9,648 nucleotides of DNA, taken from a virus. Taxonomy: Duplodnaviria > Heunggongvirae > Uroviricota > Caudoviricetes. A program made the position numbers and the translations under genes. Below are positions 1-9,648 of the stretch, in pieces (positions within the stretch are counted from its first letter, which is position 1; the number at the start of each line of letters is the position of its first letter). Where the stretch lies: the IMG/VR virus record IMGVR_UViG_2695420718_000006; one strand, written 5' to 3'. The notes under the pieces were generated by a model. It saw only the letters and a list, made by a program, of their open reading frames with translations. It made no database searches and was not told the DNA's origin.

Positions 1-3
1 AGA

Positions 4-4946
<4,943 letters not shown>

Positions 4947-4972
<26 letters not shown>

Positions 4973-5135
4973 TCAGCAACCCCGGTATCAGTTCATCCAG
5001 CGCGGCTGCTTTGTTCATGGCTTTGATGATATCCCGTTTCAGGAAATCAACATGTCGGTTTTCCAGTTCCGGAAAACGCCGCTGCACCGACAGGGGGATC
5101 CCGTCGAGAATACTGGCAATTTCACCTGCGATCCG
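4947..5135 (-). pseudogene. Orphan 3' fragment of the terminase small subunit gene Nu1 (last ~62 codons, no native start)
   Basis: Sequence identical to the 3' end of the intact Nu1 at 6365-6553. Translation SRIAGEIASILDGIPLSVQRRFPELENRHVDFLKRDIIKAMNKAAALDELIPGLLSEYIEQSG equals the Nu1 C-terminus. The upstream junction at 5135/5137 removes the rest of the gene; the track's 64-aa ORF starts on a junction-spanning GTG. Confidence 0.8.
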
Positions 5136-6390
5136 ACTCACCCGGCCCCCATCCCCATACGCGCATTTCGTAGCGGTCCAGCTGGGAGTCGATACCGGCG
5201 GTCAGGTAAGCCACACGGTCAGGAACGGGCGCTGAATAATGCTCTTTCCGCTCTGCCATCACTTCAGCATCCGGACGTTCGCCAATTTTCGCCTCCCACG
5301 TCTCACCGAGCGTGGTGTTTACGAAGGTTTTACGTTTTCCCGTATCCCCTTTCGTTTTCATCCAGTCTTTGACAATCTGCACCCAGGTGGTGAACGGGCT
5401 GTACGCTGTCCAGATGTGAAAGGTCACACTGTCAGGTGGCTCAATCTCTTCACCGGATGACGAAAACCAGAGAATGCCATCACGGGTCCAGATCCCGGTC
5501 TTTTCGCAGATATAACGGGCATCAGTAAAGTCCAGCTCCTGCTGGCGGATGACGCAGGCATTATGCTCGCAGAGATAAAACACGCTGGAGGGGTCATCCG
5601 GCGTCCATTTGAGGCCAAACGGCGTCTCTTTGTCGCCAAATTTAAGATACTGCTCCTCCCCGCAATGCGGGCAGGCAACATGAAAACGCATAAAATGCGG
5701 GGATTCACTGGCTGCACGCTCAATCTGACAGGTGCCTCTCACTTTGGGCGTGGAGCCACGGATGGACTTTGGCCAGACCGAGCCTTCAATACGTTTGTCG
5801 CCAAGGAACGTCGGAGAGCCTTCCTGTTCAATATCCTCATCAAAGGCAGCAAGTTCATCATAACCCGCCACATCCACTGACTTTTCACGGTAGTTTTTTG
5901 CCGCTTTACCGCCCAGGCACCAGAAGCCACGACCATTGGAAAAACGCTTCATAGTGAGCGTGTTATCCCGGTGCTTTTTGCCATACCACGGAGCCAGCGC
6001 CAGCAGCGACGGAATATCGCGGATGGTCGGCTCAACGTGGGTTTTCATAAAGTTCTCGGCATCACCATCCGTCGGCAACCAGATAAGGGTGTTGCGCTGC
6101 TTATGCTCTATAAAGTAGGCATAAACACCCAGCAGCATTTTGGAATAACCGACACGGGCAGACTTCACCACATTCACCTCACGGATGTAGTCGCTGCCCA
6201 TCGCATTCATGATGGCCCGCTGAAAGGGCAGTGTTTCCCAGCGCCCTTCCTGGTATGCGGATTCTTTCGGGAGATAGTAATTAGCATCCGCCCATTCAAC
6301 GGCGGTCTGTGGCTCCGGCCTGAACAGTGAGCGAAGCCCGGCGCGGACAAAATGCCGCAGCCTGTTAACCTGACTGTTCGATATATTCAC
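5122..6390 (-). pseudogene. Truncated terminase large subunit copy (A residues 1-418 plus 4 junction-derived residues SDRR, then stop)
   Basis: 422-aa ORF identical to the gpA N-terminus through VWGWGPGE, then diverges at the 5136 junction. Start overlaps the end of the intact Nu1 as in lambda. One T-to-S difference at residue 151 versus the other copies. Confidence 0.85.
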
Positions 6391-6910
6391 TCAGCAACCC
6401 CGGTATCAGTTCATCCAGCGCGGCTGCTTTGTTCATGGCTTTGATGATATCCCGTTTCAGGAAATCAACATGTCGGTTTTCCAGTTCCGGAAAACGCCGC
6501 TGCACCGACAGGGGGATCCCGTCGAGAATACTGGCAATTTCACCTGCGATCCGCGACAACACGAAAGTACAGAATGCGGTTTCCACCACTTCAGCGGAGT
6601 CTCTGGCATTCTTCAGTTCCTGTGCGTCGGCCTGCGCACGCGTAAGTCGATGGCGTTCGTACTCAATAGTCCCTGGCTGGAGATCTGCCTCGCTGGCCTG
6701 CCGCAGTTCTTCAACCTCCCGGCGCAGCTTTTCGTTCTCAATTTCAGCATCCCTTTCGGCATACCATTTTATGACGGCGGCAGAGTCATAAAGCACCTCA
6801 TTACCCTTGCCACCGCCTCGCAGAACGGGCATTCCCTGTTCCTGCCAGTTCTGAATGGTACGGATACTCGCACCGAAAATGTCAGCCAGCTGCTTTTTGT
6901 TGACTTCCAT
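6365..6910 (-). CDS. Nu1: Terminase small subunit Nu1, 181 aa
   Basis: Product MEVNKKQLADIFGASIRTIQNWQEQGMPVLRGGGKGNEVLYDSAAVIKWYAERD is recognised as lambda gpNu1 (winged-HTH N-terminus) at the native 181-aa length. It lies immediately downstream of cos, as in lambda. Confidence 0.95.
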   Translation of the reverse strand: MEVNKKQLADIFGASIRTIQNWQEQGMPVLRGGGKGNEVLYDSAAVIKWYAERDAEIENEKLRREVEELRQASEADLQPGTIEYERHRLTRAQADAQELKNARDSAEVVETAFCTFVLSRIAGEIASILDGIPLSVQRRFPELENRHVDFLKRDIIKAMNKAAALDELIPGLLSEYIEQSG

Positions 6911-7135
6911 TGTTCATTCCACGGACAAAAACAGAGAAAGGAAACGACAGAGGCCAAAAAGCTCGCTTTCAGCACCTGTCGTTTCCTTTCTTTTCAGGGG
7001 GTATTTTAAATAAAAACATTAAGTTACGACGAAGAAGAACGGAAACACCTTAAACCGGAAAATTTTCATAAATAGCGAAAACCCGCGAGGTCGCCGCCCC
7101 GTAACCTGTCGGATCGCCGGAAAGGACCCGCAAAA
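6911..7135 (-). other. cos: Lambda-type cos site: cosB (Nu1-binding R elements and IHF region) 6911-7087, cosN 7088-7099, cosQ-side right-end sequence 7100-7135
   Basis: Reverse complement of 6911-7099 reads GGGCGGCGACCTCGCGGGTTTTCGCTATTTATGAAAATTTTCCGGTTTAAGG...GAAAGGAAACGACAGGTGCTGAAAGCGAG..., matching the recalled lambda left end with only a few substitutions. Reverse complement of 7100-7131 matches the recalled lambda right end GCGGGTCCTTTCCGGCGATCCGACAGGTTACG. Confidence 0.9.
7088..7099 (-). other. cosN 12-nt cohesive-end sequence (AGGTCGCCGCCC on plus strand, i.e. GGGCGGCGACCT)
   Basis: Exact 12-mer of the lambda cohesive end, flanked by lambda-like left-end and right-end sequence. Confidence 0.9.
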
Positions 7136-7150
7136 TGATAATAATTATCA
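7136..7150. promoter_or_regulatory. Perfect 7-1-7 inverted repeat TGATAATaATTATCA; candidate Fur box or operator
   Basis: Arms TGATAAT (7136-7142) and ATTATCA (7144-7150) are exact reverse complements around a single centre base; the palindrome extends to 17 bp (7135-7151). It matches the 7-1-7 form of the Fur-box consensus. It sits directly next to cosQ and about 150 bp upstream of the plus-strand ORF at 7299. Confidence 0.45.
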
Positions 7151-7298
7151 TCTGCATGTCACAACGTGCATCTACGCCATCAAACCACGTCAAATAATCA
7201 ATTATGACGCAGGTATCATATTAATTGATCTGCATCAACTTAACGTAAAAACAACTTCAGACAATACAAATCAGCGACACTAAATACGGGACAACCTC

Positions 7299-7532
7299 AT
7301 GTCAACGAAGAACAGAACCCGCAGAACAACAATCCGCAACATCCGCTTTCCTAACCAAATGATTGAACAAATTAACATCGCTCTTGATCAAAAAGGGTAC
7401 GGGAATTTCTCAGCCTGGGTCATTGAAGCCTGCCGCCGGAGACTGTGCTCAGAAAAAAGAGTTTCTCCTGAAGCAAACAAAGAAAAGAGTGACATTACTG
7501 AATTGCTCAGAAAACAGATCAGACCAGATTGA
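7299..7532 (+). CDS. Small ribbon-helix-helix (Arc/MetJ/CopG-like) DNA-binding protein, 77 aa (hypothetical)
   Basis: Basic N-terminal tail RTRRTT, then a beta-strand-like alternating segment TIRNIRF, helix PNQMIEQINIALDQ, a G-x-S/T/N-type turn (GYGNFS) and a second helix AWVIEACRRRL, the canonical RHH layout. Lower GC than neighbouring phage genes. No strong Shine-Dalgarno sequence, so the start is uncertain. Confidence 0.55.
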   Translation: MSTKNRTRRTTIRNIRFPNQMIEQINIALDQKGYGNFSAWVIEACRRRLCSEKRVSPEANKEKSDITELLRKQIRPD

Positions 7533-7588
7533 AGCAATTTAGATAATCGTGCAGACTACGCCCCTCATATCACATGGAAGGTACTACA

Positions 7589-7999
7589 ATGGCTCAGGTT
7601 GCCATTTTTAAACAAATATTCGATAAAGTGCGAAATAATTTAAACTATCACTGGTTTTATTCTGAACTAAAACGTCACAATGTCTCACATTACATTTACT
7701 ATTTAGCTACAGAGAATATTCATCTTGTTCTTGAAAACGATAATACGGTTTTAATAAAAGGACAGGGTAAGGTTGTAAATGTAAGATTTTCAAAAAATAA
7801 ATGCCTTATAGAAGCCACCTTAAAAGGATTCAAATCAGGAGAGTTATCATTTTACGAATACAGGAAAAATCTTGCTACAGCAGGGGTTTTCAGATGGATT
7901 ACAAATATCCACGAAAACAAAAGGTATTACTATACCTTTGATAATTCATTACTCTTTACTGAGAACATTCAGAACACTACACAAATATTTCCGCACTAA
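7589..7999 (+). CDS. Hypothetical cargo protein, 136 aa from the SD-supported ATG (the track ORF begins 5 codons earlier at 7574)
   Basis: GGAAGG Shine-Dalgarno 7 nt upstream of ATG 7589. Very AT-rich (roughly 30% GC by eye), Tyr/Asn/Lys-rich product with no transmembrane segment. Length and position resemble, from memory, the ybcV (DUF1398) locus of the E. coli DLP12 prophage; this is not verifiable without alignment. Confidence 0.6.
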
Positions 8000-8256
8000 A
8001 TCATAACGTCCGGTTTCTTCCGTGCCAGAACCGGACTCGCTGGCATGATGAAATATGTGTACCCGGTAACCCCGGTGTGCATCGTTTTTGATTATTCCCG
8101 CACACTCGCGCAGAAGGAGTTCCCCGTCGGGCTACGGTCTCTGTTAATACGGGAATACGGCGACGATACAGCGCATGATGTGTCAGGCTTGAATACCTTT
8201 ATCCTTTAAAAGGGATATCAGTTAAGTTATCCCGTGTAGGGTATAAACCATTATCA

Positions 8257-8287
8257 AAGCCACTCTGTAGGAAGTGGCTTTTGTAAT
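8257..8287 (+). terminator. Candidate intrinsic terminator for the plus-strand cargo transcript
   Basis: 8-bp perfect stem AAGCCACT / AGTGGCTT with an 8-nt loop, followed by TTTTGTAAT. Located about 260 bp downstream of the 136-aa ORF. Confidence 0.4.
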
Positions 8288-8290
8288 GGC

Positions 8291-8316
8291 AATAAAAAGC
8301 CCCGCGAATGCGAGGC
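8291..8316 (-). terminator. Candidate intrinsic terminator for minus-strand (lysis cassette) transcription
   Basis: On the minus strand: GCCUCGC-AUUC-GCGGGGC (7-bp stem with one G-U wobble) followed by UUUUUAUU. On the plus strand the same position is a C/A mismatch, so it is strand-specific. About 175 bp downstream of the Rz stop. Confidence 0.5.
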
Positions 8317-8490
8317 TAAATCCTGGTATTTGTAATGACTGGCTCTTATCTCAACGCAGCCCCTTACCGCGCGCAAAATGCTCAATATCAAGCATCAGCA
8401 ATGAGATGTTTAATCTGGATTCACTCCAGAAGTGAGCACCACCCTGTCTACAGAGCCAGATGTGAAGGATGATGAGTAAAATTATCGCTA

Positions 8491-8958
8491 TCATCGAAGG
8501 CATTGCGTCCTGATGTATTCCTGAAGCGTTCTCAGTGCTGTTTGGTCGCGGATAATTCCGTCCCGGACACCGAGAACGTTTCGTCCAGCAACTGGAGAGA
8601 GTTCGACGGTGGCATCATTGCCCATGCCGGAGGCGCTGGAGGTTTCGGCTGAGGATGGCACAGGGCATTTTCCTTTGACGAGCACCCGACCACCATTATC
8701 AAGCTTGCGCCGAAGAGCATCATTTTCAGCTTTCGCATCAGCTAACTCCTTCGTGTATTTATCATCGAGTGCATCAGCATCACGCTGGCGCTGCTGCATG
8801 TCAGTAATGGTGGCGTTCGCCTTCTCCAGTTCACTGGCCTTGTTATCGCGCTGTTCTTTGTAGGCGATTGCATTATCACGGTAATGATTAACAGCCCATG
8901 ACAGGCAGACGATGATGCAGATAACCAGAGCGGAGATAATCGCGGTTACCCTGCTCAT
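8491..8958 (-). CDS. Rz: Rz i-spanin (inner-membrane spanin), about 155 aa
   Basis: From the ATG at 8958 the product begins [30 protein letters not shown], matching the recalled lambda Rz N-terminus (N-terminal TMD plus coiled-coil-like body). Rz start ATG overlaps the R stop TGA (ATGA). The C-terminal half diverges from lambda. The track ORF begins 4 codons upstream. Confidence 0.85.
8532..8738 (-). CDS. Rz1: Rz1 o-spanin (outer-membrane lipoprotein), 68 aa, embedded in Rz in another frame
   Basis: [21 protein letters not shown] has a signal peptide and lipobox (VVGC), followed by a proline-rich segment [16 protein letters not shown]. It lies entirely within Rz in a different frame, the hallmark Rz/Rz1 architecture. 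It resembles lambda Rz1 (MLKLKMML...). Confidence 0.8.
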
Positions 8959-9452
8959 TGTTGCCCCCACAAACAGACCTCACGCTCAATCTCACGACGA
9001 GTCATCAGGCCTTTCCATTGCTTACCGCCAGCGTATGCCCAGCGACGTAGCTGGTCACATGCGCCCTTGATATCGCCCTGGTTTATTTTGCGAAGAAGAG
9101 TAGATGTTCTGAAATTGCCTGCGCCCACGTTATAGACGAACGAGTAAAGAGCGCCGCGCGTTGTTTCCGGTATATCGACTTTGATGTACGGGTTAATTTG
9201 TCTGGCTACCGTGGCAAGGTCTTTATTCAGGAGGGCTTTGCATTCTGCTTCGGTATACGTTTTACCGGGAATGATGTCTTTTCCTGTATGCCCGTGACAT
9301 ACAGTCCATACGCCAACGATATCTTTGTATGGTATGTAGCTGACACCTTCCAGACCATCGTTACCACTTGGGCCAGTGATTAACACTGATGCTATAGCAA
9401 TTGCTCCGCCACCAATAGCAGCAGCAACGGCTTTTCGTAATGATGGAGGCAT
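8955..9452 (-). CDS. R: SAR endolysin (phage P21 R21-type lysozyme), 165 aa
   Basis: N-terminal Gly/Ala-rich weakly hydrophobic signal-anchor-release segment [20 protein letters not shown]; catalytic-triad positions E35, D44, T50 present ([22 protein letters not shown]). The whole sequence matches recalled R21. Start ATG overlaps the upstream holin stop (TAATG). Confidence 0.9.
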
Positions 9453-9648
9453 TATTCACCTCTCGCAGCCTTGCGCTTATCTTCTTTAATCTTGAAATAA
9501 AGGTTTGTCAGGTACGTCAGCAGGCCAAATACCAAGCTACCCAGCACACCTATTGCTGCCCACTGTGAGGGCGTGACTTTATCGTAAGCGTAAACTGACC
9601 GCCGTATGTAGCCATCAGACGAGAATTGGTAACTTAGACGCCCATCTG
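9452..9648 (-). CDS. S: Holin, 3' portion (partial; N-terminus beyond window end); S21/pinholin-like C-terminal TMD and charged tail
   Basis: Hand translation of the minus strand gives ...[64 protein letters not shown]-stop. The C-terminal ~40 aa match recalled S21 ([13 protein letters not shown]...YLTNLYFKI...RKAARGE). It sits immediately upstream of R with a stop/start overlap. The in-window N-terminal part is unexpectedly hydrophilic. Confidence 0.55.

Follow-up and report, generated by a model that had tools for sequence, protein, structure and literature searches.

The closest described relatives of the locus analysed here are the S21-type pinholins, represented by S21 of phage 21 (S21 68/71) and by its E. 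coli prophage orthologue, EssD of DLP12 (PF04971). According to a systematic truncation study of S21 68, pores require TMD2 and can be formed by it alone, TMD1 serving to time activation and to stabilise the pore; S21 30-68 still makes transient pores (bioRxiv 10.1101/2021.04.20.440580). The other relevant system is the IS66 family of insertion sequences, and within it ISEc23. The termini of IS66-family elements typically begin with GTAA.

Both systems meet at the right end of the window, i.e., the whole stretch of 9,648 nucleotides that was analysed. The comparisons reported below leave little doubt that an ISEc23-like IS66 element of 2.5 kb is inserted in the essD/S21-type pinholin gene of a DLP12/phage-21-like lambdoid prophage, and that what remains of this gene in the window is a pseudogene. 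The features of the region are the following:

8491-8970, minus strand: Rz-type spanin gene of the same cassette (PF03245, E=6e-29; annotated as 'lysis protein' in L003)
8955-9452, minus strand: intact R21/RrrD-type endolysin gene, 165 aa (from the translation; PF00959, E=9e-46)
9452-9583, minus strand: 3' remnant of an essD/S21-type pinholin gene, codons 29-71 and TAA stop
9576-9583, no strand assigned: candidate 8-bp target site ACTTTATC, proposed from the 8-bp duplication that flanks the same IS in L001
9584-9648, plus strand: left end of an IS66-family (ISEc23-like) element, cut by the window edge (65/65 identity to L001 2499-2563 and to L002)

The minus strand of positions 9452-9646 gives a stop-free translation of 64 residues, the last 43 of which (DKVTP...ARGE) correspond to EssD residues 29-71; stops are present in the other two minus-strand frames. 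The remnant encodes the inter-TMD loop, TMD2 (about residues 36-57) and the basic, charged C-terminal tail, and it is identical at 132/132 nucleotides to nt 85-216 of essD in the prophage of E. coli AVS0747 (L003). This is the closest prophage, and its EssD is intact at 71 aa. The preliminary description of this DNA had proposed an S21-like TMD2 and charged tail at the C-terminus, which is what this identity to essD codons 29-71 and the stop demonstrates; a faulty picture of S21, the last of the causes it offered, does not account for the oddity, given that TMD2 and tail had been described correctly.

In a profile search, residues 21-60 of the fragment matched positions 24-63/64 of PF04971 (P21 holin S; Phage_holin_2_1) with E=1.6e-20. 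Intact EssD covers positions 1-63 of this profile, and the fragment lacks a full-length match. Hydropathy (Kyte-Doolittle means over 15 residues) is preserved in TMD2, where it reaches 2.1, and lies between -0.3 and -1.1 in the residues before the holin part, versus +0.1 to +0.6 in authentic TMD1. The coding DNA of the weakly hydrophobic, Gly/Ala-rich TMD1 is absent from the remnant, and IS DNA stands in its place. The polar character that had been noted for the stretch preceding the holin part is thus confirmed, but its length is not: since DKVTP belongs to the holin loop, the foreign stretch comprises 21 residues rather than 26.

The remnant also occupies the place typical of a pinholin in a lambdoid cassette, upstream of a SAR-type endolysin. 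Like S21 and EssD, it lies directly upstream of an R21/RrrD-type endolysin gene, with its TAA stop overlapping the endolysin ATG by 1 nt. The endolysin N-terminus contains an Ala/Gly-rich hydrophobic stretch of 18 residues, which we take to resemble the signal-anchor-release domain of R21. Ten public loci with an identical endolysin were sampled, and in all ten the gene ahead of it encodes a complete PF04971 holin of 71 aa that has the EssD N-terminus, with V/I variation at one position. The remnant differs from S21 and EssD in that codons 1-28, which carry the dual-start motif and TMD1, are replaced by IS DNA, leaving it without a start codon.

The homology to essD ends abruptly, with all essD/S21 homologues ceasing to match at 9583/9584. 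With positions 9300-9648 as query, megablast retrieved thousands of copies of essD/rrrD or S/R from a set of 5,426 complete E. coli genomes plus 50,697 phage records, each alignment stopping at query positions 285-295 (9584-9594 of the window). When the query was extended to the whole window, alignments to the best-matching prophages (99.1-99.2% identical) and phages likewise stopped at 9583/9584. A pseudogene in which the TMD1 codons persist in the wrong frame, through a frameshift or point mutation, would be in keeping with how common such lesions are in defective prophages, and the terminase gene of the window is disrupted as well. However, positions 9584-9648 agree with the 5' end of essD at just 13-23 of 65 bases in registers from -3 to +3, and none of their three frames resembles the 28 residues of the EssD N-terminus. 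On these grounds the frameshift put forward in the preliminary description is excluded as the cause, and we regard any such lesion as extremely improbable. Nor is the upstream region a normal conserved holin N-terminus.

The 65 nucleotides beyond the break read GTAAGCGTAAACTGACCGCCGTAT from position 9584 onward. In L001 and L002 the matching sequence lies directly upstream of tnpA, tnpB and a third gene annotated 'IS66-like element ISEc23 family transposase'. When the contexts of the window, L001 and L002 are compared, the sequence is common to the three only from GTAAGCGTAAACTGACC on, which therefore places the IS terminus at position 9584. The terminal inverted repeat covers about 9584-9607 of the window, and the start of tnpA is expected approximately 21 nt past the window edge at 9648. 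In L001 the complete element extends from 2499 to 5030 (2,532 bp) and has ...CGCTTAC as its last bases; an 8-bp duplication, GCCTGTTC, borders it on both sides. The adjoining element shares with ISEc23 and the IS66 family the terminus GTAAGCG, imperfect inverted repeats of ~24 nt, three ORFs and a length of 2,532 bp, where only the first 65 nt are in the window and the remaining features are drawn from relatives.

Searched alone, positions 9586-9648 were found at 10,632 places in 3,325 of the 5,426 complete E. coli genomes, on chromosomes and plasmids (median of 2 places per genome, maximum of 22), and also in a few lambda-like phages. The contexts of the IS elsewhere include the interior of another IS (L001) and the vicinity of a tail-fibre gene (the lambda-like phages). 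These observations bear on the possibility, raised earlier, of a divergent holin class in which an S21-like TMD2 and tail follow a soluble, hydrophilic N-terminal domain. The frame that is open to the window edge and the score that the fragment still attains on PF04971 agree with such a protein. Yet the DNA of the supposed domain is identical at 65/65 positions to an IS terminus present at more than 10,000 places in E. coli genomes and within unrelated genes, and once the continuation of the IS is added the frame meets a stop 41 codons upstream and offers no start codon. A novel holin class is accordingly a most implausible reading.

Because positions 9584-9648 are identical to the IS terminus, the 21 polar residues are IS DNA that happens to be in frame. 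The chance of such an open frame can be approximated as a 1-in-3 frame match multiplied by the probability of 21 stop-free codons (~0.36 for random sequence, by our own estimate), which gives ~1 in 8. A frame open through the IS end is unremarkable.

The inactivated holin in a defective prophage that was among the causes considered previously is therefore the correct one, with insertion of an IS66-family element after codon 28 as its mechanism. An ISEc23-like IS lies between essD codons 28 and 29, and we propose that it arrived there by transposition and thereby parted the remnant from the dual start (M1/M4), from TMD1 and from all upstream DNA. The 21 hydrophilic residues represent the terminal repeat and subterminal DNA of the IS, read from the opposite strand in a frame left open by chance. 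The remnant is probably an untranslated pseudogene, the downstream endolysin and spanin genes would be uncoupled from the late promoter and the Q antiterminator, and the prophage would presumably be incapable of holin-timed lysis.

Two independent IMG/VR contigs (L004 and L005) contain the exact 31-nt junction between essD and the IS; searches for it in GTDB representative genomes and JGI metagenomes returned no match, and neither did the search of the 5,426 complete E. coli genomes. L004 differs from positions 5137-9648 of the window by 1 mismatch in 4,512 nt and continues past the junction into a complete element of 2,532 bp; L005 ends 99 nt into the IS. In these near-identical relatives it is thus IS DNA, and not a TMD1 just beyond position 9648 as had been envisaged, that follows the window edge. 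The termini of the element of L004 are imperfect inverted repeats of 24 nt, with 85% pairing between the left and right ends across 26 nt. Profile searches of the elements of L004 and L001 identified TnpA (NF047595), TnpB (PF05717/NF033819; TnpB_IS66, E=1e-36) and, in the third ORF, DDE_Tnp_IS66 (PF03050, E=3e-97) and transpos_IS66 (NF033517, E=6e-135). The copy in L004 differs from that in L001 by 9 mismatches and by having no matching duplication.

These contigs also bear on the possibility that the junction is a chimera of assembly, a misjoin of essD and IS at a repeat behind which the real gene is intact. IS copies are classic points of misassembly, and the triplicated terminase of the window (see below), absent from relatives, suggests that the assembly may be unreliable. 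A misjoin is, however, expected inside the repeat and not at the first base of the IS within a unique gene, and the identical junction recurs in both L004 and L005. We consider a misjoin very unlikely.

With the insertion taken as real, the prospects for expression of the remnant were evaluated on L004. The frame that runs from the IS into the remnant has 84 open codons, the stop lying 41 codons ahead of the junction. In this chimeric frame, the earliest ATG, GTG or TTG is a GTG at Val42, within TMD2; the dual-start motif (Met1...Met4) was looked for in the same frame, and no ATG, GTG or TTG occurs upstream of Val42. A consensus scan of both strands across the junction (L004 5900-6700) found no sigma-70-like promoter.

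Engineered TMD1-less S21 proteins (S21 24-68 and 30-68; 'S21 68 delta-TMD1') are a further system close to the remnant. The remnant begins at D29 (D26 in S21 68 numbering), between the two truncation points, and it holds everything that was reported as sufficient for transient pores. The engineered constructs, however, have a start codon and a promoter, and the remnant has neither. The disabling factor is the loss of the start codons and of the transcriptional context, and not the loss of TMD1 as such. The earlier premise that S21 function requires TMD1 is too strong, since TMD2 was reported to be sufficient for pores (bioRxiv 10.1101/2021.04.20.440580).

A translated chimera of IS and essD can still be envisaged, made from a non-canonical start or by read-through from the IS and lacking TMD1 behind a hydrophilic leader of 20-40 residues. 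If it were translated, the host would be keeping an untimed, membrane-depolarising peptide, since TMD2 alone can form transient pores. A separate proposal concerns a heptamer in the right flank of the IS in L004, GAGCAGC, which might reflect an effect of homology on how an IS66-family element chooses its target or rearranges DNA. Even taken jointly, these two proposals have a very low probability.

We now return to the insertion in essD and to the right-hand flank of the IS in L004. After the element, this contig continues with GAGCAGCCGGATAATG..., the opening ~150 nt of a gene for a lambdoid exonuclease (exo) on the minus strand, followed by ydfD, also on the minus strand (L004 8639-9011). 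The expected duplication ACTTTATC and the remainder of essD (GAGCAGCTGTAAAAACC...) are absent from this right flank. That the 5' end of exo, and not the missing half of the holin gene, lies beyond the IS means that a further IS-associated rearrangement has taken place in L004. The reciprocal junction between the right end of the IS and the 5' half of essD, with and without the 8-bp duplication, was not found in the viral, metagenome and genome collections. A search for the predicted junction between the 3' part of exo and the IS was also negative, as was one for the IS-exo junction among the complete E. coli genomes.

The gene order of the intact G3/10 prophage is int, xis, exo, ydfD, dicB ... 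Q, essD, lysozyme, Rz ... nohA, terminase, portal; this prophage, compared in order to see whether the exo/ydfD region of L004 may belong to the same prophage as the lysis genes, shares the gene order and has a different endolysin (rrrQ). The layout of L004, namely R(-), 'essD(-), IS, exo 5'(-), ydfD(-), fits an inversion between two oppositely oriented copies of the IS, a model for L004 that is not a result for the window. According to this model the IS would have been present both in essD and in exo, with the two copies lying in a single prophage or in two different ones.

Under a simple deletion, the part of exo left behind would be the 3' one, in the opposite orientation.

In L004 the exo flank opens with GAGCAGC, the same heptamer as the one next to the insertion point, on its far side, in intact essD. 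In a fixed register such an identity has a probability of ~6e-5, but the observation was made post hoc.

IS-disrupted genes are commonplace in cryptic lambdoid prophages of E. coli, and the present finding is an ordinary one. Its value lies mainly in annotation: the ORF is properly described as a pseudogene (3' fragment of essD) beside an IS66-family element, and not as a novel holin. The disrupted essD also marks the prophage as rearranged and probably unable to carry out timed lysis. As a general caution, when an ORF extends past the edge of a window, mobile-element DNA that is in frame by chance can lend it a spurious 'domain'.

Elsewhere in the window, the gene for the terminase large subunit (gpA, normally 641 aa) was observed as three staggered, overlapping pieces in positions 1805-6390. 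The repeat copies span about 2375-3620, 3622-5135 and 5137-6390, as direct repeats spaced by 1,242 and 1,418 nt, and the resulting ORFs are of 1,055 and 422 aa. In terms of the E. coli AVS0747 prophage (L003), positions 1-3620 of the window correspond to 1501-5120, 3622-5135 to 3880-5393, and 5137-9584 to 3977-8424. The copies differ from one another by 1-2.3%; identity to relatives is about 98.4-99% for the first two pieces and 99.8-99.98% for the third. The triplication was not found in L003, in L004 or in any of the complete E. coli genomes, and no exact product of the two aberrant ORFs is on record. It may have arisen by recombination among paralogous prophages or as an artefact of assembly, and it is either a further sign of a defective prophage or a reason to doubt the assembly.

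The packaging-gene side differs again in L005. The left 4.7 kb of this contig (positions 1-4745) are unrelated to the terminase/portal region of the window, and the match to the window begins only at 6600, inside nu1. The lineage that carries the essD insertion has, on the evidence of L005, variable DNA on this side.

Between Rz and nu1, the plus strand of positions 7299-7999 carries a gene of the YlcI/YnfO family and a DUF1398 (ydfO-like) gene. Both genes recur together in prophages of the DLP12/Qin type (L003 and L007), and they resemble moron-type cargo conserved within this family of prophages.
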